From: a virus
Length of the DNA: 64,000 nt
Direction: 5' to 3' (one strand)
IMG/VR virus record: IMGVR_UViG_3300031576_000032
Location: 6,188 to 70,187 of that record
Shown: positions 2,795 through 49,122 of the stretch, piece after piece
Layout of the letters: every line of letters starts with the position of its first letter
Numbering within the stretch: the stretch's first letter is position 1
Program-made: the position numbers and the translations under genes
Notes under the pieces: generated by a model
What the model saw: the letters and a program-made list of their open reading frames with translations, nothing else
What the model was told of the DNA's origin: nothing
Databases searched by the model: none

Positions 2795-3678
2795 CGCGTC
2801 GCCTTGTCCTTCCGGAACACGAGGATCGTCTGGTACAGCGGCGGCTTCTTCCCCGTCTTCTTCTCGTACGTGTTGAGGAACATCGTCGTTGGGTAATGTC
2901 TCAAGATCGCCGTTCCCTCGTGCGTAAGCCCGAGTTCGGTTAGGAGATCCCCGATCTTCACGTGAAGAAGAAACGGCTCGCCCTTACGCATCATATCCTT
3001 GACAGAGACGACGAACCGGCCGTTCTTCTTCATCCGGGCGATGCACTTCTGGTAAATGTCTCGGATCGCGGCCCAGTACGCGTCGTTCTCCCGAAGGAGG
3101 CCGAGGTTCGCATACCGTTTGTCGTACCTCATCTCCTTCGGTTGTTTCTTCATATCTTTTTCGGCATATCCGAAGAAGCTCTCTCGGACGTCCCCTGAGT
3201 ACGGCGGGTTGTTGACGACGAGCGAGAACCGAGGAAGATCCGCGATCACCGACTCGATCTCTCGGGCGTCTCGGTGAACGACCCGGAACTTCGCGCCATT
3301 CGAGACCGCGGCGGCGCGGGCGAGGTTCGCTTCGACGACGTCGAAGAACTCGATCTCACACCCCGCCGCGTTCCGGCCCATCCGGAGCGCCTCGACGGGA
3401 GTCGTTCCCGCCCCGACCATCGGATCGAGGACCCAGTCGTTCTTTTTCGTAAACGTCTGGATCGCCCACCGAGCGACATGGAGCGGCGTCTTCGCCGGAT
3501 GCTTCTTTTCGATCGGATCGTAAAACGATTTCCTCTCGAGCCGGGAGTAGTTCCGTCCGTCAGGACGAATCAGCTCCCCGAGAAACGGCTTCGAGTATTT
3601 GCTAACGCCGACGTAGTCCGTCGGCATATTCGGTCCGGCGTTCAATAACTGGACCGGTTCGATCTCGTTCTTGTCCAT
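2791..3678 (-). CDS. N4-cytosine/N6-adenine type DNA methyltransferase-like protein
   Basis: HPAKTP, SAM-binding VLDPMVGAGTT, catalytic NNPPY. Confidence 0.8.
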   Translation of the reverse strand: MDKNEIEPVQLLNAGPNMPTDYVGVSKYSKPFLGELIRPDGRNYSRLERKSFYDPIEKKHPAKTPLHVARWAIQTFTKKNDWVLDPMVGAGTTPVEALRMGRNAAGCEIEFFDVVEANLARAAAVSNGAKFRVVHRDAREIESVIADLPRFSLVVNNPPYSGDVRESFFGYAEKDMKKQPKEMRYDKRYANLGLLRENDAYWAAIRDIYQKCIARMKKNGRFVVSVKDMMRKGEPFLLHVKIGDLLTELGLTHEGTAILRHYPTTMFLNTYEKKTGKKPPLYQTILVFRKDKATR

Positions 3679-3690
3679 CCGCTCCCTCCC

Positions 3691-5211: not shown

Positions 5212-5855
5212 TAGTACTCGCTCCGTTGCCGGAACCTATTGACTTCGGACTTCTTGAAGTACAACTCGAACACGGCATCCGCAGACATCCCGACGGTCCA
5301 AGACAGAAGACCAAGTCGCCCGACTGACTGGACGACGAGATCCTCAAACTTGTCTACGTCGGTTGAAACGTGCGACTGTTTCCACGGTTTATTCTTCAAG
5401 CAGTTCATCGCGAGGCCGAGGGTTTCGACGACCTTCCACGCAGAAAACATCACGACCGTTTCGCTATCCAACCCGGTATTTTTCCCCGGAATAATGATAT
5501 CGAGACGATCTTTTCCGAGGTTATCGTCGACAACGTCGGCCGGGCCGAGTCCGATCTCGATCACGAGTTCGACGAGAAAATGCCAGGCGTCGGCGACTTC
5601 CTCCTTACAGTGGACGGGATCAGCCATCGACTCAATCGCTTCGGCGAGTTCCTCAGTTACTCGCCAGGCCAGATCTTTCAGGAAGTATTGGCATTTCGGG
5701 TCGTCGATATGAAACGTCGCGGGTAGAATCCCCCGACCGATCCCGGCTTTTCCCTCGATCTCGCTGTACTTCTTCGACAATTCCCGCTGCCGGTCGAAAA
5801 TCATCTCGAGCCGGTCGCCTGTCGGCTCGGGGGCGGTCGCGTCGTTCACGTTCAT
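5211..5855 (-). CDS. Dimeric all-alpha NTP pyrophosphatase (dUTPase/dCTPase/MazG-like)
   Basis: EELAEA..EEVADAWHF acidic motifs, KNKPWK, C-terminal YFKKSEVNRFRQRSEY; ATG at 5855 overlaps upstream stop (ATGA). Confidence 0.8.
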   Translation of the reverse strand: MNVNDATAPEPTGDRLEMIFDRQRELSKKYSEIEGKAGIGRGILPATFHIDDPKCQYFLKDLAWRVTEELAEAIESMADPVHCKEEVADAWHFLVELVIEIGLGPADVVDDNLGKDRLDIIIPGKNTGLDSETVVMFSAWKVVETLGLAMNCLKNKPWKQSHVSTDVDKFEDLVVQSVGRLGLLSWTVGMSADAVFELYFKKSEVNRFRQRSEY

Positions 5856-7219
5856 GTCGCGTAGGCCTTTCTGAAGGCGTCGATACACGCCATTCGCCAC
5901 TCGATCTTCTTCTCCCCCCTGGACCCTTCGATCTTCAGGGGAACCTTCTCACGATGTAGAATAGAAAGTGGAACGATGTCCGCGAACGCTTCCTTCAATA
6001 CTTCTTTGTGTTTCCTGCGTTCCCACGGGAGCGCGAGCGCGTAGTTCACGATCGGAAGGGCGAGGAACGGGCACCGGAGTTCGACCATCGAGAACATCAT
6101 CGTCCGGTCAAGCCGGGGGAGGTGGTAGTGGATCAACTCGTGAAACACGTCGGACTTTTGCGAGTCATACTCGGCCGTGCGACGGTATCCTCCGAACAAC
6201 TCGTCGGCCCCGTCCCCGGAAAGGACGACGTCAACCCCGGATTCTCGAACGGCCTTTCCTAGGTCGATTTGGGCCATCACCGAGCCGAGATCGACGGGGC
6301 ACTGGTGGATTTGAACCGCGACTTCTTTTTCGATCTCGACTGGTCGGTTGATCGCGATCATCTCGATTTCGCTTCCGGGGAACCGAAAGTCCAGATGTTT
6401 TAGGAAGTCGGCTTCGTCGTTCTCAACATGAAAGACTTTGAAGTCGGTCCGGACCTTCTTCATCATCTCGAAAACGATCGTTGAGTCGAGTCCGCCGGAA
6501 AGAAGAACCCCGACCGGAACATCCGACACCATTCGATTTCGGACAGACTCCTCGACGGCCGCACGAAGGTCCGTTCCAGTTGGGTATAACCCAAGTCCAT
6601 ACTGGTACGATTCCTTAAGCCGTCCGAACTCATCGTAGACTAGGATCGATCCAGGCGCAATCGAATGGATCTCGTTCCAGGGAGTCGACCGATCGTAACA
6701 ATATCCGAACCGCGCGACCCCGCCGAGGTACGTTTCGTTCAACGTCGACGGCCCGGCCTCGAGCAAAGGATCGATCTCGGACGATATCGCAAGCGCCGGA
6801 AGCGTTCGGTAGTAAAGCGGCTTCTTCGCGAGCGGATCGGTCACGACCGTAACGGTCTTCTTCGACGTGTCAATGAATACAAACGACCAGAACCCGTCGA
6901 ACCCGGCAAGACATTTCGGTCCAAACTTCTCCCACATCGCGAGGACGACGGCGAGGTCGTTCTTCGCCGCCGGGTCATACTTTCGGAAGTTGAACACTTC
7001 CCCGACCATCAACCCATACAGGTTCTTCGTACCGTGACGCATCGGCTGGTCGAACGTCTCGCTCAGCCCTTGAATCGGGAGCCGGGCGTGCGAGACGTAT
7101 ACGAGACCCGGTTGGAAGAACCTCGCGGTCGTCGTCCGTTTCCCCCGGTGCTCCAACTTTGCGGCCATCCTTTCGATGACGGATTTGTCTTTCCCAAAAT
7201 AGACGTTAATCCCGCACAT
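5852..7219 (-). CDS. Asparagine synthetase B-like glutamine-dependent amidotransferase / amide ligase
   Basis: N-terminal MCGI (Ntn Cys), HARLPIQG, GEVFNF, PP-loop LLSGGLDS, SGDGADELFGGY. Confidence 0.92.
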   Translation of the reverse strand: MCGINVYFGKDKSVIERMAAKLEHRGKRTTTARFFQPGLVYVSHARLPIQGLSETFDQPMRHGTKNLYGLMVGEVFNFRKYDPAAKNDLAVVLAMWEKFGPKCLAGFDGFWSFVFIDTSKKTVTVVTDPLAKKPLYYRTLPALAISSEIDPLLEAGPSTLNETYLGGVARFGYCYDRSTPWNEIHSIAPGSILVYDEFGRLKESYQYGLGLYPTGTDLRAAVEESVRNRMVSDVPVGVLLSGGLDSTIVFEMMKKVRTDFKVFHVENDEADFLKHLDFRFPGSEIEMIAINRPVEIEKEVAVQIHQCPVDLGSVMAQIDLGKAVRESGVDVVLSGDGADELFGGYRRTAEYDSQKSDVFHELIHYHLPRLDRTMMFSMVELRCPFLALPIVNYALALPWERRKHKEVLKEAFADIVPLSILHREKVPLKIEGSRGEKKIEWRMACIDAFRKAYAT

Positions 7220-26973: not shown

Positions 26974-27040
26974 ATCCTCCGTTGGTTTCGATCCGGGGGA
27001 CGCGCGAGGTTTTCTCGAGCCGTTCCCGATCGACCCCCGG

Positions 27041-27070
27041 ATCGTAACACCTATATATCGCTCTTGTAAA
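27041..27070 (-). promoter_or_regulatory. Sigma70-like early promoter
   Basis: TTTACA-N18-TACGAT. Confidence 0.7.
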
Positions 27071-27296
27071 TCCTTATTATCGGCCGATTCGATGAGTTTC
27101 GAAAATAAGTTTTGATGTTTTTGGGAGGGCAAAAGGGGCTAGTGGTAAGGAAGTTACCAGGGAAGCAAGCGAAAACGGCTGTGAAGAATGAGATTCTGGG
27201 GGAAGAGTTGGCACGGGAACGGATTTGGGTTAAGGAAGAAGGTGTCCTTATAAAGGGACGCAGATTCGGGAGGTTTTTGGGTTATCTACAAAGTCG

Positions 27297-27619
27297 GCAT
27301 CACATGCATCGGACGTTCTCATTAAAGTCGTTCTTCCGATGCCGCGGTAAGGTATTGCCAGGGTGGACGTTACGGATTTTGGCATCACATGGCATCGGGT
27401 CGGTTGGTTCGTCCGATGCTTACCAAAGCCGTAAAAACAAACGACTTAGAGGTCGAAAACTTACCACTGCCCCTTATATACAGTTTTTTTCAAGATTGAT
27501 TTTGAAACCAATTTCTGCACCTCTAGGACCGATGCATGTGATGCTTTCGTTTACCTGTAACGACTTAGATGGCATCACATCGGCTTCATATGGTACGTCT
27601 CATGTGATGCATGTGATGC
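27297..27619. repeat. Six copies of GCATCACAT in mixed orientation; candidate origin or packaging-protein binding sites
   Basis: Plus copies at 27297, 27382, 27572; minus copies at 27536, 27602, 27611; non-coding region between divergent units. Confidence 0.75.
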
Positions 27620-27828
27620 CTTACCCCTCCTGCGATATAGACCAAAAGAAAGAATGAAACGAAGTTGGCTCCAGCCTCCTTATAAGGAAGTGGTAAGAAA
27701 TTGGGCGGTTCTCCCTGTAGAGGAGTATATGGCTAGAAGGGCGTTCTTTCCCCTGGTTTATGGGAGGGCTATCATTTGGTTGTAAGAGCATGGATCGAGA
27801 AGCCAGAACCTGTATAATGAATTTTGAT

Positions 27829-28455
27829 ATGCGAAAGCCTACTGGAAAGCCGGTTGGGGGGGCCAACAATGTAGCTACGTTGGATAGGCCTGATGTGAGA
27901 ACCAGGAAGCCAGGAGCGGTGCGCGATCGCGTGAACGCGGGGTTCAAGTTCCCTGGAGGTTGGCGTCCCGGCATCGACGAACCTGCCGTGACATTGAAGA
28001 AAGCGATTTCCTTCCTGTCCTCCCTTCATGATAACGGGGGAATCGTTGATCGGGCTTGTAGAGAAGCTGGAATAACGAGGACCGCGGCTTATAGGTATCG
28101 AGACGAGGACCCAGAGTTCACTGCTGCTTGGGACAAGTGCGTTGATCGAGGGATCGACGTCCTCGAGGATGAATGCAAGAACCGTGCGCTGAACGGTGTC
28201 GCGGAGCCCGTGTTTTATCAGGGAGTTATCTGCGGTCACGTCCAGAGATACTCGGATGGGATGTTGATGAAGCTCCTGGCTGCTCATCGCGCAAAATATC
28301 GTGACCGCTCCGAGATCTCCGGCCCAAACGGTGGCCCGATTGCGATGGCTATCCAGATGTATATTCCCGAGAACAAGCGCGACCCGCTTCTCGAGGTTGA
28401 AATCGAGGAACAAAATCGCGTAATCTCGGACCGCGAACAAAATTCGCAAGAATAA
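27829..28455 (+). CDS. terS: Terminase small subunit
   Basis: HTH ACREAGITRTAAYRYR..DPEFTAAWD; EPVFYQG..RYSDGMLMKLL; EISGPNGGPI; start uncertain. Confidence 0.8.
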   Translation: MRKPTGKPVGGANNVATLDRPDVRTRKPGAVRDRVNAGFKFPGGWRPGIDEPAVTLKKAISFLSSLHDNGGIVDRACREAGITRTAAYRYRDEDPEFTAAWDKCVDRGIDVLEDECKNRALNGVAEPVFYQGVICGHVQRYSDGMLMKLLAAHRAKYRDRSEISGPNGGPIAMAIQMYIPENKRDPLLEVEIEEQNRVISDREQNSQE

Positions 28456-28577
28456 TCCCCTAGAAATCCTGCGCATATCTCCGCTGGCAGATGGCTTTTC
28501 TCTAGGTTCTAGGCTAGATCTCTGGGGTCCTACGAGGTTTTCGAGTACTGTTAGCGCTCGGTCCAAGGCCTAAGAAA

Positions 28578-28609
28578 AAGCCCGTTGGGTATATATACCC
28601 AACGGGCTT
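28578..28609. terminator. Intrinsic terminator between convergent terS and early genes
   Basis: Perfect palindrome AAGCCCGTTGGGTATATATACCCAACGGGCTT with A-tract on the left. Confidence 0.75.
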
Positions 28610-28614
28610 CGTGG

Positions 28615-28869
28615 TTATCGGCCGTTCCTACCGTGGTCGTAGGCCGCGTGGTCGATGAATCGGGCGAGGTTGTTAAGCGCGACGATCGCGGCTTCGACGT
28701 CCCACTCCGCGGTGTTCCGAGCGAGGATGTTGTAGATGAACTCGAGGTTGTCCCGAGCGATCTTGGGGTTAGAGAGGTTCTTGATCTCAACATTTTCGGC
28801 GTTTTGGATCATCGTGTCGATCTCGGCGATCGTTTCGTAGTATTCGGTTTCGGTTTTCCTGGACTTCAT
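28615..28869 (-). CDS. Hypothetical early protein
   Basis: AAGGAG RBS, ATG. Confidence 0.65.
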   Translation of the reverse strand: MKSRKTETEYYETIAEIDTMIQNAENVEIKNLSNPKIARDNLEFIYNILARNTAEWDVEAAIVALNNLARFIDHAAYDHGRNGR

Positions 28870-28934
28870 CTTTTCTCCTTAGGAAAGAAGGAACGCGGAC
28901 CGAGAATCCTCGGCCCGCGTTTTGGTTTGCTTTG

Positions 28935-29321
28935 CTACGCGTTTACCGTCGCGAGATCCTTGACGTCGGCGACGACGACTCCGTCTTCGACGAGTGTCCA
29001 CGTCTTCGTCGACCGGTCGTAGGTCGTCGCGACGAACGCTTCGCCCTTCGACCTCATCTTGTTGCGCATGATTCCAAATGCGACCCGGACGTTTGCTTCG
29101 TCGAACCCTGAAGCCTTGACCGCGTCGGCGAGGGTGAGGGACTTCCGCTCCCGGATCGCGGCGCGGAGGCGTCCGTACTTCGTGACGCGGGGCGGCTTTG
29201 GAACCTTTGGGGCCTTCGCCTTAGACTCCGTCGTCGGCGCGTTGGCCGTGATGTTGGCGCTCGCGTCGCGTCCGGAGACGCCGCGGGCGATCTTCCTTAC
29301 TTTGGCCTTGTGCTTCGACAT
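28935..29321 (-). CDS. Basic winged-helix-like early protein, paralogue of 31901-32263
   Basis: 48/67 identical residues to 31901-32263 in the core (hand alignment); own promoter. Confidence 0.75.
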   Translation of the reverse strand: MSKHKAKVRKIARGVSGRDASANITANAPTTESKAKAPKVPKPPRVTKYGRLRAAIRERKSLTLADAVKASGFDEANVRVAFGIMRNKMRSKGEAFVATTYDRSTKTWTLVEDGVVVADVKDLATVNA

Positions 29322-29394
29322 TTTTGAATCCTTCGTTCTCGGCCTCGGTCCGCGTCGGGGAGTTTCCTCGACCGCGTCCGATCCGAACAAAAGA

Positions 29395-29452
29395 ATAATA
29401 CCATCTCCGATACCGCTTTGTAAATACCTATTTTACGACTAATGAAAATAAG
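29395..29452 (-). promoter_or_regulatory. Early promoter with conserved upstream box
   Basis: TTTACA-N18-TATTAT plus CTAATGAAAATAAG box (also at 30455 and 31070). Confidence 0.7.
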
Positions 29453-29617
29453 AATTGCGGGGCAGCGCTCCGAGGAGGCCTAGGGAAAGGCTTAGGAATC
29501 CTGCGCATGTTGCGCTAGGCCGGAGGCGCTCGGACCGAGTACTGTTAGCGCTCAGACCGAGCGACGTGGGAGATGCAACAAAGAACTCCCGGCCGGTTAG
29601 GGCTGAGGGTTCGTTGG

Positions 29618-29938
29618 TTAAAGGTATTTTTCGAAGTCGACGGGTTCGTTGATCGTTGTGAAGATTGATTGGATCAACCAATTTGTTCGCGATTCGACTT
29701 CGATGATGTGGACCGTGCTGTTGTGGTCGTCGTTAGGGAACGGTGCGTCGAGGTTCTCGTGAGTGTTGATGAACTCCGCGATTTTTTCGAGCGCCGCGTT
29801 AGAGTACTCGAGGAGCCCGGTGATGACTTCGTTGCCTTTGTCGATTCGGTCGTCGTAGATATCGACGATTCCTTCGGCGGTGCCGAATGCGTAGTTCATG
29901 ATTTTGTTTTGGAGTTCCCGACGTTGTTCGTTAGTCAT
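29618..29938 (-). CDS. Acidic hypothetical early protein
   Basis: AACGGAGGAAACAACGATG leader identical to that of the next gene. Confidence 0.7.
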   Translation of the reverse strand: MTNEQRRELQNKIMNYAFGTAEGIVDIYDDRIDKGNEVITGLLEYSNAALEKIAEFINTHENLDAPFPNDDHNSTVHIIEVESRTNWLIQSIFTTINEPVDFEKYL

Positions 29939-30007
29939 CGTTGTTTCCTCCGTTCGGCCCTAACCGGCCGATTCATTACTCGGCCGGTTAGGGCCGAGGG
30001 TTTTGGG

Positions 30008-30343
30008 TTAAGCTGAAAGCGCGAGCGCGACGATTGTCGTTAGGATCGCGCGGTATCGGATTTTCCAAATCTCCATTCTAAGCCCGTCGTGCGCGTGGTC
30101 GAAGTCGATATCGGCCGCGCCGACGAACTCGTAGAAAGTTCTCCCGTTGATTGAGTGTTCGACGATCCGAGGAAATTGATCCAAGAACGAAGCGACCCGT
30201 TCGAGATCCGGAATCGAAAGATGTTTTGTAACTTCGTTGATCGGGTGATCGTCGTCGGCTTCGCAAAACTCAGGATTTAGCGACGATCCGATTTTCCAAA
30301 TTGCGTTCCACCGAAGCCGTTTGGTTTCGTCGTTAGGTTCCAT
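30008..30343 (-). CDS. Hypothetical early protein
   Basis: AACGGAGGAAACAACGATG leader. Confidence 0.7.
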   Translation of the reverse strand: MEPNDETKRLRWNAIWKIGSSLNPEFCEADDDHPINEVTKHLSIPDLERVASFLDQFPRIVEHSINGRTFYEFVGAADIDFDHAHDGLRMEIWKIRYRAILTTIVALALSA

Positions 30344-30411
30344 CGTTGTTTCCTCCGTTGACCCGTTCCCGTCGTCCGGTATATCCCGGAGCGGACGGAC
30401 CGATCGGTAAA

Positions 30412-30468
30412 ATCGTACGATCTTTTGCGATCTTTGTAAATACTAAAGACGGCACTAATGAAAATAAG
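30412..30468 (-). promoter_or_regulatory. Early promoter with conserved upstream box
   Basis: TTTACA-N17-TACGAT plus CTAATGAAAATAAG. Confidence 0.7.
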
Positions 30469-30673
30469 AATTGCGAGGCTATTTTCCGAGGTAGATGAGG
30501 CCTCAAAAAAGGTCTGGGAAAACTGCGCAATGGAGGTAGAAGAGATCGCTTGTGGCGTAGCCTGTTAGCGCTAATCGGCGTGGGGCGGGAGAGACCACAA
30601 AAAGACCCCGTCCGTTTTCGGGCGGGGTCCGTAGTTTCTATCGGGGCGGCGCGTTCGTTTCGAAGTCCCAAAT

Positions 30674-30958
30674 CTACCGTTCCGGTTCGAGACCAAACGC
30701 GGTTCGGATTAGGTCGCTTCGCCGTTGGAGTTCTTCGAGCGCCTCGGAATCGTTATCGTCGGCGCGTTCCGCAAGAAGATCGTTCGTCGTTTCCGGAACC
30801 GAGGCGGCTACGGAGATTACCCGGTCCCGTTCGAGGGTCTCGGGGAAATCGTCGTGACCTAATCCGAGATTCCCGAACCCGATCCGAGCACCGCAAATAA
30901 AATCGGCGATCCGATCGAGGGCCCTATTGAGTTCTTCGTCGTTTTCGTCGTAGATCAT
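30674..30958 (-). CDS. Acidic hypothetical early protein
   Basis: AAGGGGG RBS; own promoter and downstream hairpin. Confidence 0.7.
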   Translation of the reverse strand: MIYDENDEELNRALDRIADFICGARIGFGNLGLGHDDFPETLERDRVISVAASVPETTNDLLAERADDNDSEALEELQRRSDLIRTAFGLEPER

Positions 30959-31026
30959 CGTTGCCCCCTTCGTAGATCCGGTTTCGGTTCGTCGGTCGTT
31001 CCGAAGACACCGTACCGATCGGAATA

Positions 31027-31083
31027 ACGATACGACGTTTAGTCATCTTTGTAAATACTAAAGATCGCGCTAATGAAAATAAG
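31027..31083 (-). promoter_or_regulatory. Early promoter with conserved upstream box
   Basis: TTTACA-N17-TATCGT plus CTAATGAAAATAAG. Confidence 0.6.
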
Positions 31084-31094
31084 TATTGGGGGGC

Positions 31095-31314
31095 TGCGCA
31101 AGGTCTTCTAGGAATGAACGGAGGAATCTCCGTAGGTAGGAAAGCGTACTAAATTGCGCTGAATGAACTGCGCAATCTCCGTAGGTAGGGAGCGGAGAGA
31201 ACTGCGCAATTAGGCCTAAAATAGATCGCAAAAAACTGCGCAAAAGATTGCGCAAATAGGTAGCGAAGGGAGAAGAGAAAGTTGCGCAGGAAGGAGAGCG
31301 AAAGAAATTGCGCA
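31095..31314. repeat. Cluster of seven TGCGCA palindromes plus AATCTCCGTAGGTAGG direct repeat
   Basis: TGCGCA at 31095, 31169, 31203, 31237, 31249, 31283, 31309. Confidence 0.85.
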
Positions 31315-31549
31315 ATGAGCGCTAGAATGAGCGAAGGCGAGCCGGGGGGAGCGGAGCGCGCGCCGAGGCCGACGGAGCGAAGCGTTGCGGGAGGACGTGC
31401 CGAGGCGAGGCGAGGCGAGGCGAGCGGATGCGTGGAATGGGCGATGGAGCGCGGTAGGCCGAGGTTTAGGGGGTGCGGATCGGCCCCCGATATTCCGGGG
31501 GCCGATACCGCCCGACGGGGGCCGATCGGCCCCCGTCGTTCCGTCCCGT

Positions 31550-31768
31550 TTACCGGTCGCCGGGCGTTCGGATCGTCCGGGCGAACCGATCGTATTCCCG
31601 CCCCGTCCGAACGTCGAAAAACCGTCCGTCGCGGATCGCGATCGTCGCGTCCGAATCGTCGTCGTCGTTCGCGTCCACCGTCGGAATCGCGAACGTCGTT
31701 CCGGCGAATAAATCGCCGAACGCGATTCCGTCGTCGTCGTACCGCGCACCCCCGTTATTTCGTTCCAC
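31550..31768 (-). CDS. 72-aa acidic early protein in the AG/CT-free island
   Basis: GGGGG RBS, GTG start, TAA stop, followed by hairpin ACGGGGGCCGATCGGCCCCCGT. Confidence 0.6.
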   Translation of the reverse strand: MERNNGGARYDDDGIAFGDLFAGTTFAIPTVDANDDDDSDATIAIRDGRFFDVRTGREYDRFARTIRTPGDR

Positions 31769-31900
31769 CGTATAACCCCCGGATCGGCGGATCGGCGCGG
31801 GGGGAATCCCCGCCGTCGTCCCCGGTCCCCCGATCGTCCGACGCGCGGGCGATCGGGGGACCGTCCCGCCCCGTACGGGGCGGGATCGGTCGCGTTCGGG

Positions 31901-32263
31901 TTATCGGACGATCGCGTCCGCCGGTTCGGTCGAATCGACCGATTCGATACCGTCCGCGTCGCGGACGATCGTATACGTTTTCGTCGCGCGGTCGTACGTC
32001 GTCGCGACGTAATTCGCGCCGCGCGACCGAACCGGATTCCGTAAAATCGCGAACGCGACGCGGACGTTATTCGCGTCGAACCCGGACGCGACGATCGCGT
32101 CCGCGATCGTAATCGAACCCCGTTCCCGGATCGCCGCGCGTAACCGTCCGTATTTCGTCGCCCGGATCGGTCGTTCCGCCGCGTTCGCGTTTTCGTTCGC
32201 GACGACCGAATCCGCCGCGTTTCCCGTCGTCCCCGCCCCGTCGTTCCGTTTCGTTTTCGACAC
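31901..32263 (-). CDS. Winged-helix-like early protein, recoded paralogue of 28935-29321
   Basis: Clear paralogy; GGGGGA RBS, GTG start, TAA stop, downstream hairpin TCCCGCCCCGTACGGGGCGGGA. Confidence 0.8.
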   Translation of the reverse strand: MSKTKRNDGAGTTGNAADSVVANENANAAERPIRATKYGRLRAAIRERGSITIADAIVASGFDANNVRVAFAILRNPVRSRGANYVATTYDRATKTYTIVRDADGIESVDSTEPADAIVR

Positions 32264-32331
32264 CGGATTATCCCCCGTCCGATCCCGTCGCGTCGGGGTG
32301 GATTCCCCGCCCGCGCGTTCCGAACGACCGA

Positions 32332-32394
32332 ATTATACGATATTCCGCGTCGGGTGTAAACGTAAATCGTATCGGTTTCGGCCCCCGGTGTAAA
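32332..32394 (-). promoter_or_regulatory. Two tandem near-consensus sigma70 promoters
   Basis: TTTACA-N17-TATAAT (32360-32332) and TTTACA-N17-TACGAT (32394-32366). Confidence 0.8.
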
Positions 32395-32617
32395 ATAATC
32401 GGAACGTCCGTATACCGTTTCGATCCGGGGACACCCCCGGCGATCCCGTCGCGTCGTTTCGGCGGGCCGGTGCCCGTCCGACGGTTTCCGACGCGCGCGG
32501 AACGGCGGCAAGCGCCTCGGAAGAATTTCTAGGTTCCTGGATCCAGAGTCTCTATAGCTATTCCCATCTTCCTCGTTTACATTTTTCCCCAATCCGTGGT
32601 ACACGTTTAATCCACAC

Positions 32618-34051
32618 ATGCCTCTCACAACCGCAACAAAACTCCCCCCACGCCAATCCCAACATCCAACTCAGTTAGAAATCCGCCCCCAACCCGGCCC
32701 ACAAGAAGCTTTCCTGGCTACGTCCGCCGACATCGCTATATATGGCGGCGCGGCCGGGGCGGGCAAAACGTGGGCCTTGCTGATGGAACCGTTAAGACAT
32801 TTCCATCGAAAAGGCTTCGGCGCAGTCTTCTTCCGCCGCACGTCCCCCCAAATCACGGTCGAGGGCGGAATCTGGGACACCTCGGAAAAATTGTATCCCC
32901 TGGTCGGCGGTGTCCCGAAGTCAACCCTCGAATGGAACTTCCCAAGCGGCGTCACCTTCAGCATGTATCACATGGAACACGAGAAAGACCGTTTCAACTT
33001 CGACTCTAGCCAAATCCCGTTCATAGGATTCGACCAGCTCGAATCGTTCACGAAGAAACAGTTCTTCTACATGCTGTCTCGAAATCGTAGCACCTGTGGC
33101 GTCCGGCCTTACATACGCGGAACGTGTAACCCGGACCCCGATTCATTCCTTCGTCCTCTCCTGGAATGGTGGCTCGATAACGACACGGGCCTTCCGATTC
33201 TTTCCCGGTCCGGCATCCTTCGATGGATGGTCGTTCGTGACGACGTCGCTCATTGGGGTTTTTCGAAGGATGAGATGATGTCTCGTTTCGAAAATTCCCG
33301 GCCGTTGTCGTTCACGTTTATTCCAGGGAAACTTCAAGACAATCCGATCCTTATGGAAGAGGACCCGGATTACCTTGCGAAATTGGAAGCTCTTCTCCCT
33401 GTAGAAAAGCAGAGACTGTTGTATGGAAACTGGAACGCCCGCGAAACGGCCGGGACATTCTTCCGGAGAGAGTGGCTTGACGGAAAGTTCGTCGAGCCGC
33501 GCGACGTCCCAAAACAGTTCGATGCCGTCGCCCGGTACTGGGACCGCGCCGCGACAGCCGAGGAACGAGGAAAACGGAAGAAGGGTTCGGCGACCGCTAG
33601 CGTAAAAATCGGGCGGACCGGGAAAATAGGTTCGGCGGACGTCAAATTCTATGTCCTCGACGTTACGAACTTCTGGAAAGACCCGCAGGGTGTCCGCGCC
33701 GCGATTAAGGTAACGGCCGAAACCGACGGGCACGCCGTTACGCAATGGGCGGAGCAGGACCCGGGGCAAGCCGGAAAGTTCGAAGCGGAGGATCTCGTCC
33801 GAATCCTTATCGGACTCGGATTCTCTGCGAGAGCAAATAATGTTCGCGAATCGAAGGGGACGAGGTATAAGGTATTCGCCGACGCGGCCCAAGCGGGGAT
33901 GGTGTACGTAGTCAAAGCCCCATGGAACGAGCCGTGGATACGGCAACAAGAGAACTTCGACGGGACCGACGCGTGTAAGTCGGACATGGCCGACTCGACG
34001 TCCGGGGCGATTTTCGCAGTCGGAAAAACTAAGCGGTCGGGAACGTGGTAG
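32618..34051 (+). CDS. terL: Terminase large subunit
   Basis: PQPGPQEAF..YGGAAGAGKT, IGFDQLE Walker B variant, GTCNP, RYWDRAA, EQDPGQAGK, DMADS nuclease motif. Confidence 0.95.
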   Translation: MPLTTATKLPPRQSQHPTQLEIRPQPGPQEAFLATSADIAIYGGAAGAGKTWALLMEPLRHFHRKGFGAVFFRRTSPQITVEGGIWDTSEKLYPLVGGVPKSTLEWNFPSGVTFSMYHMEHEKDRFNFDSSQIPFIGFDQLESFTKKQFFYMLSRNRSTCGVRPYIRGTCNPDPDSFLRPLLEWWLDNDTGLPILSRSGILRWMVVRDDVAHWGFSKDEMMSRFENSRPLSFTFIPGKLQDNPILMEEDPDYLAKLEALLPVEKQRLLYGNWNARETAGTFFRREWLDGKFVEPRDVPKQFDAVARYWDRAATAEERGKRKKGSATASVKIGRTGKIGSADVKFYVLDVTNFWKDPQGVRAAIKVTAETDGHAVTQWAEQDPGQAGKFEAEDLVRILIGLGFSARANNVRESKGTRYKVFADAAQAGMVYVVKAPWNEPWIRQQENFDGTDACKSDMADSTSGAIFAVGKTKRSGTW

Positions 34052-34121
34052 CCGAAGGCTACTTCGTTACCGACCGGGCATGACGAGCGAAGCGAGTCAG
34101 GCAGGCGGCCGGAGGTAGGAA

Positions 34122-43536: not shown

Positions 43537-44217
43537 GTGCCAGCGACGCGTCTCGAGAGAGTCCTTGGTCCGGGAGGGAAGCGAGCGACCCTCGTTTCGT
43601 CTCACAAGGCGTGGATCGTTCCGCGAATCTGGCCCGAGTCGACTGTCGCGATCCTCGGCGGGGGGCCGTCGCTTCCGTCGGCTGAGGATCTCAAGAAGAT
43701 TCCGCTTTCATGGAAGACGATCGCGGTCAACATGGCGTTTCGGTCCGCGCCATTCTCTGACGTTTTGTTCTACGGAGATCCCCATTTCCCGTCGATCACT
43801 CGTGCGACGGACGGCCCGACGATCGACGATTTCGCGGGGCTCGTTGTCACGCGCGTCGCTCCGGGAGATGGGAGCGCGATGTTCGTCGCGTGGGAGTCGG
43901 GGATCGATGGGATATCGAAAGATCCGACGCGACTTCGATGGAACCGATCGAGCGGCGCGTGCGCGATCGGACTCGCGCGGCATTTCGGCGCGAAGAGGAT
44001 TGTCCTTTTTGGGTTCGACATGCGAATCGTCGACGGGAGGAAGAACTTCCATTCGTGGTATGGACGCGATTTGAAGAATCCATTCGAACAAATGCTCGAA
44101 CCGTTCGGCGCGATTGAACGAGACCTTCACGAGGAACAGATCGAGTGCATTAACGCGACGCCGGGTTCTGCGATTCGATCACTCCCGATTGTTGACCCGG
44201 TGAGCCTCTTCGTATGA
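43537..44217 (+). CDS. DUF115/MptE-like Rossmannoid protein (glycosyltransferase-associated)
   Basis: VAILGGGPSL, IAVN, SSGACAI, GAKRIVLFGFDM, INATP. Confidence 0.7.
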   Translation: MPATRLERVLGPGGKRATLVSSHKAWIVPRIWPESTVAILGGGPSLPSAEDLKKIPLSWKTIAVNMAFRSAPFSDVLFYGDPHFPSITRATDGPTIDDFAGLVVTRVAPGDGSAMFVAWESGIDGISKDPTRLRWNRSSGACAIGLARHFGAKRIVLFGFDMRIVDGRKNFHSWYGRDLKNPFEQMLEPFGAIERDLHEEQIECINATPGSAIRSLPIVDPVSLFV

Positions 44218-44870
44218 ACGTCGTCTGCGTCCTGAAATCGGGCGGGGACTATGACGTCGGCGACGTCGAGAACTTGTCCCGGCAGATCCGGAAGAACTTG
44301 GACGTCGGCGCGATCTTCTGTTTGACCGACGTCCCGTTCGACATCTCAAGGTTCGAGAAGACGGGGATCGTTGTCGTGCGACTCAAATCAACGTGGCCCG
44401 GATGGTGGGCGAAGATGGAACTGTTTTCGATCCCCGGGCCGGTCCTTTACTTCGACCTCGACACGGTGATCGTTAGCGACCTTGCCCCCCTGGTGACGGC
44501 GATCGATGCGATTGGTCGCGACCGGATTTTAATGCTCCGGAACTTCTACGACCCGTCTCCGGGTTCCGGAATCATGGGATGGAACGGAGATTTCTCGTCG
44601 ATGTTCCGGCAATTTCAGGCTGCGGTCGAGACCGGGGACTTTTTGAAGCGGGGCGATCGGTGGACGTTTACTCACGACGGGAAAACGTACCCGGGGGATC
44701 AAAACTGGATCGCGGCGCGGCTTTCCGAGTCGAAGAGGGTCCCAGTGTTTGCCCAAGACGTAGTCGACGGGATCGTTAGCTACAAAGTCGGGTCTGTCGA
44801 AAAGAACGGGCTTCCTCCTGGAGCGCGGATCGTTGTGTTTCATGGGAAACCCCCCGGCCGTGGGAATTGA
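44214..44870 (+). CDS. Glycosyltransferase (GT-A, GT8-like)
   Basis: VCVLKSGGDY, GWWAKMELF, LYFDLDTVI (DxD), GDQNWI, IVVFHGKP. Confidence 0.8.
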   Translation: MNVVCVLKSGGDYDVGDVENLSRQIRKNLDVGAIFCLTDVPFDISRFEKTGIVVVRLKSTWPGWWAKMELFSIPGPVLYFDLDTVIVSDLAPLVTAIDAIGRDRILMLRNFYDPSPGSGIMGWNGDFSSMFRQFQAAVETGDFLKRGDRWTFTHDGKTYPGDQNWIAARLSESKRVPVFAQDVVDGIVSYKVGSVEKNGLPPGARIVVFHGKPPGRGN

Positions 44871-44892
44871 ATCCGGTTCCAGTGTGGATAAC

Positions 44893-45687
44893 ATGACGCC
44901 GCTTTGGTTTTTCTGGGGTCAGAAGCGAATGTCGTTCTTGCGGTACATGACGCTCCGTAGCGCGTGCGATGTTCACGCCGATGTGCGGATTATTGTTCGC
45001 GATGAGGAGCTTCGGCCAGCCGTGAAGTGGGTAGAGTCTCAGGACTTCATGAACAATGACGATGGTGCCGACTGGATGGCGGAGGCGATGAAACTGCCAA
45101 TCAGGGTCCACGATCTCCGTGAGATCGCGCCCGTGCTATCCGACCTTCGGGCGCCAGACGTCCAGACGAGCGACCTGCTCGCTTGGTGGATCCTCGCGAC
45201 GATCGGCGGAACGGTCTGCGATATGGACATCGTGTTCCTGAAGCCGCTCCCGGAGATTATCGAGAACGTTGAGGTCGCGCGTTGGGAGCGCGATGTCCAC
45301 CGATATGATTACCTTCCGATCGGATACATTCAGGGTCGACCACACGACAAGTGGCGTGACGCGTATGCGAAGGCGCTTGCGGCATATGATCCGAACGTGT
45401 ACCAGTCGTGCGGTGGCGAAAACCTCAAGCCGTGGCCGGAGGCCCGACTAAGCCCGTTCGTCGTGTACCCTTGGGCCGGGGCGGTCTACCGGCAGATCCT
45501 GGACTATTGCTTCAAGACGACTCACTGGCCGCCACTACCCGTCGCGTGCGTTGGGGTCCACTGGTACGGCGGTGCGTGGCAATCTGAGAACGCGCGGATC
45601 AACGGGCCGGACGACCTTGAAGCGGGTGCCGTCTCGTGGGCGATCAAGACCGTCCTCGCCGGTTCAGAAGTGGTGGTGCCGCGATGA
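44893..45687 (+). CDS. Glycosyltransferase (DxD, GT32-like)
   Basis: WFFWG..YMTLRS, SDLLAWWILATIGGTVCDMDIVFLKP, GVHWYGG. Confidence 0.75.
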   Translation: MTPLWFFWGQKRMSFLRYMTLRSACDVHADVRIIVRDEELRPAVKWVESQDFMNNDDGADWMAEAMKLPIRVHDLREIAPVLSDLRAPDVQTSDLLAWWILATIGGTVCDMDIVFLKPLPEIIENVEVARWERDVHRYDYLPIGYIQGRPHDKWRDAYAKALAAYDPNVYQSCGGENLKPWPEARLSPFVVYPWAGAVYRQILDYCFKTTHWPPLPVACVGVHWYGGAWQSENARINGPDDLEAGAVSWAIKTVLAGSEVVVPR

Positions 45688-46466
45688 GAGTCTCCGTCGT
45701 TAACTTCTGCTCGACGGCACTTGAGATGCTCAAGTTTTCCACCGAGTCGCTTCTTGAGAACGCGGGGACTGGCGATTTTGATTATCTCGTCGTGACGTGG
45801 AATCCCAGCCCAGAGGTCGAGGCTTGGCTCGATGCGCAGCCATCGATTTATCGCGCTCGGTACCAGACGGACAACTCGTTTGACTATGTTCCGAATCTCC
45901 GGAAGATGATGAGCTATGGGTTCAGCGAGGGCTATCAACTCAACGACTACGTCGTCATCGTGAACACGGACATGGCATTCGGCGAGTGTTGGCTTGAGAA
46001 TCTCGCCCGCCGCGCCGATGAGGACGTGATTCCCAATTCGGTCCACGTTACTCCAGTCGAGTCACCGTTCGTCGTCGTCGCAAATTTCGGCATCCCGACG
46101 CGCGAGACGTTCGATATGGCGCGCTGGGAAAAACTTCACGACAAGCTCCTCACTTCGGCAAAGAATGATGCCATCGCGCGTGGTTTGGACATGGTCCAGA
46201 CACCCGAGGATCGTGGCGGCGACTGGCGGTCGTGTGCGACGATGCCGTATGTCCTTCATAGGAAATGGTGGGAGCGGTTCGGCCCCTGGGAACCGAACCT
46301 CGATGGGCAGAAGGAAGCACCAGATCGGAGGTTCTTTGGTCGATGCCACGACGGTGGGGCGAAGTTCGTTCTCTGCTTGGATTCGATCTGTTATCATCAT
46401 GAAGCAGTAGAGCGACGCGGGTCGTGTCGGCCGATCGGGGTCGAGTCGATGAAAGCGGGGTTGTAG
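45684..46466 (+). CDS. Glycosyltransferase-like protein (GT2-like)
   Basis: YVVIVNTDMAF..WLENL, WERFGPW, PDRRFF, ICYH. Confidence 0.65.
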   Translation: MRVSVVNFCSTALEMLKFSTESLLENAGTGDFDYLVVTWNPSPEVEAWLDAQPSIYRARYQTDNSFDYVPNLRKMMSYGFSEGYQLNDYVVIVNTDMAFGECWLENLARRADEDVIPNSVHVTPVESPFVVVANFGIPTRETFDMARWEKLHDKLLTSAKNDAIARGLDMVQTPEDRGGDWRSCATMPYVLHRKWWERFGPWEPNLDGQKEAPDRRFFGRCHDGGAKFVLCLDSICYHHEAVERRGSCRPIGVESMKAGL

Positions 46467-47128
46467 TGGACTGGGGAACGGCGGAGATGGAATCGTTTTG
46501 GTCGAAGATGCATTCTCGGAACGACGGACCCGCGCTTACGGGATCTTCACTCGTGAGCGTTCGTGATACCCCCGGGCTTGGTACTGTTCCAATTCCGGGA
46601 ATCCATATGTTGGAGATCGGGGTCGGGCTCGGTCGGGCCACGAAGGAGATTCATGACCTTGGAGTCGTCGTCGATACGCTTGATATCTGCAATGAAGCGC
46701 TCGACCGAGTCGTCGACTTTACGCGGGCTCGATATCTTCATCGGGACATCGAGAATCTTTCCGTCGATGAATATGATCTCGCGGTGTCGCTCCTCGTCAC
46801 GCAGCATATGAGCGATCGTGATATCCTTTGGCAGTTCCCCCGCGTGTTCCGGTCCTTGAACCAAAAGGGCCGATTCGTCGTTCAGTGGGCGGGGTCGCGA
46901 ATTGACGGGGAAAACGACAATCACGGGACGGTCCTCGGGGAATACGGTCCGGTTGATGGGATCACTCCGGTCGGGATGATCTCGGGCCGTATGGTTAGGA
47001 GCGAATCGCATGCGACTTCCCTGATCGAGCGGTCAGGGGGAAAGGTGCTCGAGATCCGGGGCCGCCGCGAGTTTCCAGAGTTTAAGTCGTGCTGGTTCGT
47101 AACCGAATGTAGGAAAGTTGATGGCTAG
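46466..47128 (+). CDS. Class I SAM-dependent methyltransferase
   Basis: LEIGVGLGR, LDIC, YDLAVSLLVTQH, LNQKGRF. Confidence 0.82.
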   Translation: MDWGTAEMESFWSKMHSRNDGPALTGSSLVSVRDTPGLGTVPIPGIHMLEIGVGLGRATKEIHDLGVVVDTLDICNEALDRVVDFTRARYLHRDIENLSVDEYDLAVSLLVTQHMSDRDILWQFPRVFRSLNQKGRFVVQWAGSRIDGENDNHGTVLGEYGPVDGITPVGMISGRMVRSESHATSLIERSGGKVLEIRGRREFPEFKSCWFVTECRKVDG

Positions 47129-47846
47129 GGCGACTCTCTTGATCGTGGCGCGGAATCGCGCCCAGCAGTTCGCAGTCGCTATGTTGACGATCTGGAATCG
47201 GAAGTATAAGGACATCGACATCCTCGTCGTTGATGATGGATCTTTTGACGACACGCCGAGGATCACTAGGGATTTTAGCGACGTGATCACCAGGTACCAT
47301 CGGATCGATCGACCAGGGGGGTATCGTCGGAATCCAGCGGAGGTCCTTAATATCGGGCACGCGCTTTCTGAGACGGACGTTGTGATCGAGCAGGGAGCCG
47401 AAGTCTGTCATCTTACGGACTGCGTTACTCCTTTACTTGAGGGGTGTTCGTCTGGGACCGTCGTCCTAGCAAGAGTCTACAATGGACGAACGGAAGACCT
47501 CGACCGAGTGGAGTCGGCGCTACGGGCCGGAAAACTTCTTCCGTCGGTCCGGGATCATGTTCCTTCAAGTGTTCGAACGGATGGCGACCGGTGGCCCGTT
47601 CCTCGAGTCGACGTGCACGCGACCAGCGGGATCGGGGTCGATCTTTATTGTGGGGAGGAAAGAGCCGTTCCGTTCCTGTTTCTTGGGGCGAGCCATGGGG
47701 ACGATTTCTCCGCGGTCGGCGGGTATGACGAGAAGCTTTCTGGCCGGAACGATGAGGACCTTGCGAACCGGCTTCTCGGCCGTGGCGTCCGGTTCGTCTT
47801 CTCGAACCAAGCGATCGCGTTTCATCTTCTTCATGGAAAGTCTTAG
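47121..47846 (+). CDS. Glycosyltransferase family 2
   Basis: ILVVDDGSFDDT, VGGYDE, EDLANRL, AFHLLH. Confidence 0.85.
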   Translation: MARATLLIVARNRAQQFAVAMLTIWNRKYKDIDILVVDDGSFDDTPRITRDFSDVITRYHRIDRPGGYRRNPAEVLNIGHALSETDVVIEQGAEVCHLTDCVTPLLEGCSSGTVVLARVYNGRTEDLDRVESALRAGKLLPSVRDHVPSSVRTDGDRWPVPRVDVHATSGIGVDLYCGEERAVPFLFLGASHGDDFSAVGGYDEKLSGRNDEDLANRLLGRGVRFVFSNQAIAFHLLHGKS

Positions 47847-47848
47847 CG

Positions 47849-48133
47849 ATGGTTGAACCGGTATACGACTTCATTTGCTCGATCGGGGAGCTGATCGACA
47901 AGCTTTCGATTGAGAACATCAAGTGTTATGATGCGAACACAAGAGCGATTGCTGAAAGGAAGAAGACTGACCCGAGTGCGACGGTGATCGCCGATTGTGA
48001 AGGACAGGCCCGATCGTCGGGGGAACAGCGGGTCCGGCTTAAGAACGAAATAAATAGGCGACTCGCCGAAGCTATTGAGCGTGGTAAGATAAGGCACGCG
48101 GCGGAGACGCGGACATATCGGAGGGAATCGTAA
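47849..48133 (+). CDS. Small helical protein
   Basis: SIGELIDKLSIENIK..RVRLKNEIN. Confidence 0.65.
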   Translation: MVEPVYDFICSIGELIDKLSIENIKCYDANTRAIAERKKTDPSATVIADCEGQARSSGEQRVRLKNEINRRLAEAIERGKIRHAAETRTYRRES

Positions 48134-48141
48134 GGAGACCG

Positions 48142-49122
48142 ATGGTTGAGATTGTTAAAGATGCGGTTCATCGAATCGAGTCTTACTCGGTCGCTGGCTT
48201 GTTCCCCGCGAAACTCCTTCAGGGGGAGACTCTCCGTAAAGGCCGGATCGTCCCTCGGCACGTCCAGATTTATCTTACGAACGCGTGCAATCTCGATTGC
48301 TCGTTCTGCTCGTGTGCGGACCGGAAACTTACGGAGCGGATTCCCCCCGACGAGATCGAGAAAATCCTTCCGATGCTCGCGAGCTTGGGGACGGAGGCGA
48401 TTACGCTGTCGGGCGGCGGAGAACCGTCGCTTCATCCGGCGTTCAATCGCGTAATCGACCTCGCGCATGCGCACGGGATACGGGTTGGACTCGTCAGCCA
48501 CGGGGGGCTTCTTTGGAAGCGGCTCGAGTCAAAGAACTTGACGTGGGCACGAATCTCACGATCCGATGTGATGGACCAGTCTGGGGATTACTTCTCGAAC
48601 CTGTCCGGCGTTGTTCGGAAGTTCTCGAATACGGACTGGGCGTTTAGCTATGTTCTGATGTCCGAACCGATCTGGGATAAGATGCGTGAAGCCGTTCGGT
48701 TCGCTGGGGAGCATGGATTCAAACACGTTCGGATCGTGTCGGATCTCCTCGACCTTCCTAACGTTCCGTCTATGGACGAGGTGAAGTTCCAACTCGCGGG
48801 CGTCCCCGGAGAAGAGATCGTCATCTACCAGGGAAGGAAAGGATACACGGTCGGGCGGGAGAAGTGTCTGATCAGTCTCTTGAAGCCGGTGATCGCGGCA
48901 GACGGTCGGTTGTTCCCTTGCTGCGGGGCGCAGTACGCGCTCCCTGAGTCGAAACGAGACACCGTCGATGAAATGTGTATGGGCCGATGGGAAGACATGC
49001 CGCGGATTTGGGGAGATCAGGCAAACTTCAACGGATCGGCGTGCGTCCGTTGTTACTATGATGGCTACAATCAGGCGCTTGACTATATGACGATGCCTCT
49101 TGCGCATAAGGAGTTCGTCTAG
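48142..49122 (+). CDS. Radical SAM enzyme with SPASM/twitch-like C-terminal Cys cluster
   Basis: CNLDCSFC (CxxxCxxC), SGGGEPSLHP, C..IAADGRLFPCC..CVRC. Confidence 0.9.
   Translation: MVEIVKDAVHRIESYSVAGLFPAKLLQGETLRKGRIVPRHVQIYLTNACNLDCSFCSCADRKLTERIPPDEIEKILPMLASLGTEAITLSGGGEPSLHPAFNRVIDLAHAHGIRVGLVSHGGLLWKRLESKNLTWARISRSDVMDQSGDYFSNLSGVVRKFSNTDWAFSYVLMSEPIWDKMREAVRFAGEHGFKHVRIVSDLLDLPNVPSMDEVKFQLAGVPGEEIVIYQGRKGYTVGREKCLISLLKPVIAADGRLFPCCGAQYALPESKRDTVDEMCMGRWEDMPRIWGDQANFNGSACVRCYYDGYNQALDYMTMPLAHKEFV

Follow-up and report, generated by a model that had tools for sequence, protein, structure and literature searches.

A sharply bounded, dinucleotide-free island in a tailed phage genome carries a recoded paralogue of a predicted winged-helix gene

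Introduction

What could purge a set of dinucleotides from both strands of a stretch of phage DNA so completely that genes, promoters and spacers alike are written without them? The locus analysed here raises this question. It lies in the window (the whole stretch of DNA that was analysed, 64,000 bases from a virus record that consists of one 70,187-bp contig with a terminal overlap of about 150 bp), which belongs to a tailed phage. The original prediction concerned one gene, at 31901-32263 on the minus strand, and held that its amino-acid differences from a paralogue are dictated by a ban on the dinucleotides AG, CT and TG.

Motif avoidance in phages is already known as a weak genome-wide trend or as one site missing from the DNA that enters first. 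Parts of two reports describe short defence motifs, PAMs and restriction sites, as under-represented across phage genomes by selection (PMC4246573, PMC12174588). This known depletion is statistical and genome-wide, whereas that of the island described here is total, local (1 kb) and sharply bounded.

Genome setting

Structural genes (tape-measure, portal, head-decoration, tail), followed by lysis genes, occupy the plus strand from 32.6 kb onward, while replication and nucleotide genes, among them a family A polymerase, a primase, helicases and a dCMP deaminase, lie to the left of about 27 kb on the minus strand. This minus-strand set also includes C5 and N6/N4 DNA methyltransferases, a dUTPase_2/MazG-like enzyme and an asparagine-synthase-like amidotransferase. 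These last four kinds of enzyme and the dCMP deaminase, which has a 150-aa N-terminal extension, form a minus-strand cluster at 1587-7219, which suggests DNA modification more elaborate than simple methylation. Within the structural region, a plus-strand block at 43537-49119 contains sialyltransferase-like, glycosyltransferase, class I methyltransferase and radical SAM genes and could serve virion glycosylation or another modification. An ECF sigma-factor-like ORF located after the lysis genes (2995-3519 of locus L081, genome C1) gave a weak match, just under the family cut-off (Pfam E 4.6e-4), and could direct middle or late transcription. No tRNA gene was found in the window, an Rfam scan of 27000-33000 returned nothing near threshold and a DNA search of 28500-34100 against GenBank phages returned no match.

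The gene of the terminase small subunit (terS, 27760-28455, plus strand) is separated from that of the large subunit (terL, 32618-34051, plus strand, T4-like Pfam type) by a 4-kb module of small, mostly acidic genes on the opposite (minus) strand. Each gene of this module is preceded by a sigma-70-type promoter of the form TTTACA-N17/18-TAxxxT, and the pattern TTTACA-N17-TAYNNT occurs at four sites in the window, every one of them in this early module, when 0.05 are expected. The island forms the upstream tip of the module and carries the two most upstream of its six promoters. The remainder (27041-31055, minus strand) has more TTTACA promoters at 31055, 30440 and 27070 and includes small acidic genes at 30674-30958, 30008-30343, 29618-29938 and 28615-28869, all on the minus strand. 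Between terS and the last gene of the module, a perfect 32-bp palindrome (AAGCCCGTTGGGTATA and its complement) at 28578-28609 probably terminates transcription from both sides; Logan contigs break at this palindrome. On the other side of the module, the start of terL is 107 bp from the island border and has no recognisable Shine-Dalgarno sequence.

A non-coding, repeat-rich region of 413 bp (31056-31468), the richest in AG nearby, adjoins the island. It contains eight TTGCGCAR sites (31094-31315), a 29-nt direct repeat and 4.8 copies of (CGAGG). TTGCGCAR palindromes number 12 in the window when 1.86 are expected, eight of them being packed in about 220 bp and another being located at 30523. 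This cluster separates the island from the next early promoter and may be an operator array bound by the two winged-helix paralogues described below.

Composition and borders of the island

The island extends from 31469 to 32510 (1,043 bp) and contains neither AG nor CT on either strand. Elsewhere in the 70,187-bp genome no AG/CT-free run exceeds 82 bp, and the chance of a 1,043-bp run, given the genome AG+CT rate of 0.096 per base, is about exp(-100). The ban on AG, CT and TG that had been predicted for the gene was confirmed and proved to be wider, CA being banned too and the whole island being covered. Internal TG/CA occurs ten times, each time inside GGTG/CACC, a context that accounts for 5.6% of TG in the rest of the genome, while CGTG/CACG is absent when 7.2 occurrences are expected. 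The GGTG/CACC exceptions include the two GTG start codons of the island ORFs and two -35 hexamers (TTTACAcc). The rule of the island is that C never precedes A or T, on both strands, outside the tolerated CACC/GGTG; the banned set is closed under reverse complement and the other twelve dinucleotides are near the prediction of a first-order model.

The density of banned dinucleotides is 0-5 per 300 bp in the island versus 52.8 ± 10.2 in the genome, and the borders are sharp on both sides. No clear gradient of depletion over the early module was seen in the flanking early genes; only the adjacent gene (30674-30958) is low in banned steps, with 27 per 300 bp, the genome's next-lowest window. The GC content of the island is 66% versus 57% for the window, and 22% of its dinucleotides are CpG. 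The ban extends to about 460 bp of non-coding DNA, spanning promoters, leader, spacer, hairpins and the DNA upstream of the promoters. Since 57% of all possible single substitutions in the island would produce a banned step, the pattern must be actively maintained.

Anatomy of the cassette

On the transcript (minus) strand, the island consists of about 115 bp of compliant DNA, two promoters, a leader, a gene of 120 aa, a hairpin, an ORF of 72 aa and two further hairpins. The upstream sigma-70-type promoter (32366-32394, TTTACA-N17-TACGAT) has its CA within a CACC because CC follows its -35 hexamer. The main promoter (32332-32360, TTTACA-N17-TATAAT) matches the consensus at 11 of 12 positions and is the best match in 27000-33000. 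The -35 hexamers of the island are in the context TTTACAcc, versus TTTACAaag at the three other TTTACA promoters whose sequence was read. The 5' leader (32264-32326), which has a stem-loop and is homologous to the leader of the normal-composition copy, contains the ribosome-binding site, GGGGG-N8-GTG; it is GGGGG because GGAGG cannot be written under the ban. The stability of the leader stem-loop was not above that of shuffled sequences (z -0.39), so the evidence for it is homology and not energy. Its inverted repeat is a further candidate binding site for the winged-helix protein.

The island gene (31901-32263, GTG start, TAA stop) encodes a disordered N-terminal tail and a predicted winged-helix domain. 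A GC hairpin without a U run (31860-31890) directly follows its stop codon and is more stable than shuffled sequences (z -3.56, with none of 200 shuffles equally stable). The second ORF (31550-31768), which would encode an acidic orphan (net charge -6), has a GTG start after GGGGG-N7, and this matching ribosome-binding-site layout, the sole basis for the assignment, suggests that it is coding. Protein searches found no homologue of it, an atlas look-up gave no usable match and no paralogue was present in the genome. Two very stable GC hairpins (31470-31550; -62.4 kcal/mol, z -5.21) close the island. The cassette is taken to be early only from its promoters and the order of its genes.

Comparison of the island gene with its normal-composition paralogue

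The paralogue of normal composition (28935-29321, minus strand, 128 aa) has its own promoter at 29395-29424 on the same strand (TTTACA-N18-TATTAT). Comparison of the two proteins by BLASTP gave 56 identical residues out of 97 (E 9e-37), and the predicted core of both copies, TKYGRL..VRD, was found as described, with 48 of 67 residues identical and 19 differences in an ungapped alignment. Ten positions of the normal copy had been named as impossible to encode in the island; all ten are unencodable without AG, CT, TG or CA and all ten are changed in the island copy. The changes are M85 to L, M89 to V, W108 to Y, L64 (before A) to I, L110 (before V) to I, K69 (before A) to V, K92 (before G) to R, E75 and E94 (each before A) to A and E112 (before D) to R. 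Leucine, lysine and glutamate are kept where the next codon begins with C, T or A (L52, K48, K106, E58), and the island protein lacks glutamine, histidine, cysteine, tryptophan and internal methionine, again as had been noted. The gene is written in 29 distinct codons, with GTG and TAA as its start and stop codons versus ATG and TAG in the normal copy.

The promoters and leaders of the two copies are also homologous, as the original prediction stated, with TTTACA-N17/18-TATAAT/TATTAT followed by TTCGGA..CGCGG..GGAA..CCCCGACGCG, which indicates that the whole unit was duplicated. Judged by its sequence, the island promoter would be the stronger copy of the same promoter. As a repeated operator, CCCCGACGCG was not enriched (28 sites versus 20.4 expected). 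When viral contigs were searched for the promoter unit common to both copies, nine single matches came up, none of them alignable to the module, and these were dismissed as chance.

Among the 50 core positions where both copies have the same amino acid, 22 use different codons, the differences being 9 transitions and 14 transversions in 9 of the 12 possible directions. Synonymous differences in nine directions argue for selection and against any single mutational process. The signals were rewritten and not lost: ATG became GTG, TAG became TAA, a GGAGG-type ribosome-binding site became GGGGG and TTTACAaag became TTTACAcc. The proposal that a DNA-level, strand-symmetric constraint is at work is borne out for the coding sequence, start and stop codons, ribosome-binding site, promoters and spacers of the island.

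Polarity of the changes and predicted fold

A HMMER scan with both copies identified 74 representatives that share the C-terminal domain of about 70 aa, which corresponds to no Pfam or PHROG family. Of these homologues, 28 served as the outgroup set for the polarity of the changes. The residue of the island copy is that of the family consensus at M85 to L (L in 24/28), W108 to Y (Y in 22/28, W in 0/28) and K88 to P (P in 23/28), so at these positions the change arose in the normal copy. The residue of the island copy is derived at K69V, K92R, E94A and L110I, which are junctions forbidden by the ban, and also at K60G, which the ban permits. Two of the three "impossible" residues were therefore gained by the normal copy and not lost by the island copy. 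The claim that the ban dictated the amino-acid changes is only partly right: it agrees with K69V, K92R, E94A and L110I and fails for M85 to L and W108 to Y, where the island copy has the family consensus.

The further claim that selection on DNA overrides the protein sequence was contradicted by a profile made from 50 homologues with neither copy included, which both copies fit equally (86.0 bits for the normal copy and 84.3 bits for the island copy). The near-invariant residues of the family (K, R, G, D, N, I, N, R, D) are all retained. The ban steers the island copy among acceptable residues, with no degradation of the protein.

An AlphaFold2 model made with 52 sequences predicted helices at residues 37-48, 53-60 and 64-74 and strands at 50-52, 86-91 and 96-102, with a pLDDT of 94-97 over residues 41-100 and a disordered N-terminal tail. 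The predicted topology, H1-S1-H2-H3-S2-wing-S3, is that of a winged helix and agrees with the proposal of a DNA-binding type of protein. A Foldseek search of the PDB had MarR-family, PCI and F-112 winged-helix domains in its top rows, all as weak matches (E 0.03-0.2, TM 0.36-0.43). The helix-strand-helix-helix-strand-strand order resembles that of MarR-type and F-112 proteins, whereas the dimerisation helices of MarR are absent from the island protein. The product of the island gene is thus predicted to be a winged-helix domain of an unnamed family. One of its homologues is encoded beside an integrase. No close relative was found in viral contigs, and word-indexed protein searches recovered nothing beyond the proteins of the window itself; searches of the island proteins against Pfam and PHROGs with E up to 0.1 gave no match and no known anti-defence family.

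Palindromes, restriction sites and codon use

Of the 34 palindromic hexamers that can still be written under the ban, the island contains 7, versus 19.4 ± 2.3 in simulated sequences, and none of 5,000 simulations preserving its dinucleotide make-up gave seven or fewer. The observed/expected ratio for hexamer palindromes, 0.36, is the lowest of 130 genome windows (mean 0.84, sd 0.18, minimum 0.40), a depletion only about 2.7 sd off the other windows. Palindromes of four bases are common and not depleted (GATC 20, CGCG 41, CCGG 17), so the island is not proof against all restriction enzymes.

Site avoidance is also visible genome-wide. GGATCC occurs 8 times versus about 31-42 expected and GGGCCC once versus about 18-21 expected, and GGCGCC, CCGCGG, AACGTT and GCCGGC are strongly avoided as well. 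The genome favours codons without banned steps (NCG, GTC, ATC, GAC, CGG), NCG codons making up about 50% of those for serine, threonine, proline and alanine and CTG just 10% of those for leucine. The odds ratios of the genome are 1.49 for CpG and 0.67 for CA/TG.

Possible causes of the ban

Strand symmetry, context independence and the coverage of non-coding DNA all suggest that a 2-3-bp motif is being recognised on double-stranded DNA. We infer from this, tentatively and with a little less than even confidence, that the island is a target-free cassette which evades defences that read short motifs (CRISPR PAMs, restriction sites) while it is exposed early. Selection would have purged CA and CT (hence TG and AG) from both strands, with the loss of most 6-bp palindromes also, and CACC/GGTG would be tolerated and exploited wherever start codons or -35 hexamers call for it. 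Agents that recognise a very short motif on double-stranded DNA would then find nothing to target in the stretch; candidate agents are type I-E-like PAM-dependent CRISPR adaptation or interference (AAG/ATG/NAG/AGG) and restriction enzymes. A self-contained early cassette, in which two host-type promoters and a leader precede the genes of a winged-helix protein and a small acidic protein and hairpins close the unit, would act first, and would be exposed in the cell during its expression, ahead of the phage's protective functions. The island gene is a duplicate of the normal gene, recoded in an alphabet of 12 dinucleotides and still a good member of its family. Evasion of defence is favoured by the shortage of hexamer palindromes in the island, by the avoidance of classical 6-bp sites and the choice of codons without banned steps in the genome at large, and by the T5 and T7-like precedents described below. 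It is weakened by the persistence of four-base palindromes, the lack of a clear gradient in the flanking early genes, the AG-rich neighbouring stretch, the lack of any anti-defence match in Pfam or PHROGs and the absence of such an island from the first-step-transfer DNA of T5. With terS 4 kb leftward of the island and a TerL of the T4-like type, a pac site elsewhere with permuted ends is also possible.

Avoidance of a short motif whatever its context is what a PAM-reading system would select for. AAG, ATG, AGG and GAG (CTT, CAT, CCT and CTC) are absent from both strands of the island because AG/CT is zero and TG occurs only as GTG. The interference PAMs of E. coli type I-E given in part of one report (CTT, CAT, CCT, CTC) each contain CT or CA (PMC3764190), and the top trinucleotides for spacer acquisition given in part of another (AAG, then CAG, GAG, TAG, AGG and ATG) all contain AG or TG (PMC6568314), so that the island can hold none of them. 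That part of the latter source also gives 17 interference-proficient trinucleotides for E. coli and describes GTG plasmids as supporting primed adaptation (PMC6568314). The match between the island and these PAMs is post hoc and incomplete, and the PAM lists are those of E. coli and may not be those of the host. The relatives of TerL are mostly in alphaproteobacterial prophages, with some in MAGs labelled Planctomycetaceae, Chlamydiota or Verrucomicrobia. Some A-rich PAMs that are still present in the island may belong to the interference-proficient E. coli list.

A more specific form of this proposal seems to us possible but doubtful. It describes a "stealth" cassette, immune to acquisition or targeting by a defence that reads the C-A/T (A/T-G) step and alone exposed during a staged entry, in a lineage unrelated to T5. 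The defence would be either PAM-dependent CRISPR or an enzyme, of host or phage, with dinucleotide-level specificity. If the cassette were of this kind, the banned set would be a direct read-out of the specificity of the host defence, and other phages should carry islands with other banned sets.

Agents other than host defence could favour a site-free stretch. An early or virion-borne nuclease or DNA-damaging enzyme of the phage, with low specificity at C-A/T steps, could destroy host DNA, and the phage DNA then present would have to be free of its sites. An absolute, context-free ban suits one enzyme with a 2-bp preference more than many restriction enzymes, the borders of the island are sharp and part of a T5 report puts forward the same argument for T5 A1 and first-step-transfer DNA (10.1101/866236). 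However, the island encodes no nuclease, no candidate enzyme was identified elsewhere in the genome and the scheme requires a hypothetical staged entry of DNA; it is unlikely in our view. We would give slightly less credit to the idea that the phage modifies motifs containing the banned steps and spares the island from modification, as a protection against type IV restriction or for the sake of host RNA polymerase or regulators. The phage has the C5 and N6/N4 methyltransferases, dCMP deaminase, dUTPase_2/MazG-like pyrophosphohydrolase and asparagine-synthase-like amidotransferase that such a scheme could use, and CACC/GGTG could be a motif that escapes or receives the modification. The specificities of the methyltransferases are not inferable, though, solved relatives giving only generic matches; four other early promoters work in DNA of normal composition, and no thymidylate-synthase-like base-replacement enzyme was found in the genome.

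The remaining explanations place the cause in the nucleic acid itself or in the data. A physical role, as an end segment for packaging or ejection or as a CpG-dense segment coated by a phage protein, would fit the position of the island beside terL and the repeat-rich non-coding region, its CpG content and its DNA-binding type of fold. An absolute ban rarely results from structural selection, however, and the tolerance of GGTG would be left unexplained. The banned steps are not known to differ in nearest-neighbour stacking stability from the allowed mirror steps GA/TC and AC/GT, which also counts against such a role, and we consider it very improbable. A constraint on RNA or translation, such as pressure to keep a motif cleaved by an RNase or toxin out of the early transcript or codon optimisation of an extreme degree, would agree with the preferred codons of the genome, which are already free of banned steps, and with the strongest promoter driving the cassette. 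Yet the banned set is closed under reverse complement, as are 52 of the 1,820 possible sets of four dinucleotides, although mRNA reads one strand only, and the ban holds in the non-coding DNA, upstream of the promoters and at codon junctions, at a cost of five amino acids. Codon optimisation alone was rejected on the strand symmetry of the ban and its extension to non-coding DNA, and an RNA-level cause in general appears far-fetched. The composition of the island is extreme and local, as mutational bias, hypermutation or an artefact of sequencing or assembly might produce. Nevertheless, the changes relative to the paralogue run in nine of 12 directions, the protein stays in its family, the signals are functionally rewritten and contigs from two runs of one sample, one of which may be the source of the record, carry the island. 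We regard this last explanation as hardly credible.

Whatever its cause, the island is a natural example of deep recoding, in which a gene and its start and stop codons, ribosome-binding site, promoters and spacers were rewritten to drop one quarter of the dinucleotides. Five amino acids were forgone and the protein is still within its family, which shows the reach of selection on DNA itself. If evasion of defence is the driver, dinucleotide-free runs would be a signature of the first-exposed DNA of uncultured phages and a way of inferring what the defences of their hosts recognise. The winged-helix protein and the orphan acidic protein would then be indicated as candidate early or anti-defence proteins.

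Comparison with known systems

The island has a likeness to the first-step-transfer DNA of T5. In the part of the T5 report that concerns this DNA, it is described as the only DNA open to attack by EcoRI and by CRISPR targeting, and its end is marked by a non-coding stop region full of repeats (10.1101/866236). As the only vulnerable part of the genome, this region must therefore lack targets. Strong host-type promoters drive a cluster of small early genes in the module described here as in the T5 region, and the 413-bp repeat-rich non-coding region that abuts the island may be a counterpart of the repeat- and palindrome-rich stop region of T5. The T5 region, however, is about 9.6 kb long and lies inside a 10-kb terminal repeat, whereas the island is 1 kb, and the first 11 kb of T5 contain no dinucleotide-free island, their longest AG/CT-free run being 74 bp. 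T5 enters in two steps, while this phage is known from assembled contigs alone. Comparison of the island family with T5 A2, the only T5 transfer protein compared, showed no homology (hhalign probability 0.5%).

In Autographiviridae, according to part of another report, escape hinges on the leading region being free of a Type I motif, even if the motif is present elsewhere, and this T7-like leading region varies and harbours anti-defence genes (PMC12455610). There, one Type I motif is missing, whereas in the island four dinucleotides are banned and a gene is recoded. The leading regions of conjugative plasmids, the DNA that goes in first, are described in part of a further report as GC-rich and enriched in anti-defence genes, and palindromic motifs, in the data given there, are not consistently depleted from them (PMC13478746). 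The island is likewise GC-rich, while plasmid leading DNA enters single-stranded. A likeness to the genome-wide depletion known in phages also exists, this genome too avoiding several 6-bp palindromes.

No counterpart of the island was found in about 2.3 Mb of other loci. The longest AG/CT-free run was 102 bp in 80 viral loci around TerL relatives (1.12 Mb), the minimum was 36 banned steps per 300 bp in 71 bacterial or MAG loci (1.06 Mb), and no comparable run was present in three metagenome loci encoding homologues or in nine chance-match loci. A search of open-access papers and bioRxiv found no description of such an island. It is best filed as an extreme new form of target avoidance in phage DNA that would be exposed early.

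Support from the sample

Contigs from two runs of one cave-metagenome sample carry the island, one run without any differing letter and the other with one. A 63,266-bp contig that begins at 31401, spans the island and reaches the structural genes shows no differences, and its run may be the source of the record. The single difference in the second run, G to T at 31859, produces no banned step. Three of 30 bins had no cover in the low-depth run X2. These two holders were the only ones listed for the stretch, with no RNA run among them.

Short alternative pieces were present at the (CGAGG) repeat (31395-31430). The mean word depth in run X1 was 77 for the contig of the early module (28580-31424), 21.7 for the 63-kb contig with the island (31401-34100) and 36.9 for the contig to the left (28500-28607); contig depth is not copy number, and run X2 had no such difference in depth. 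The early module of normal composition may be common to more abundant relatives in the sample that differ elsewhere.
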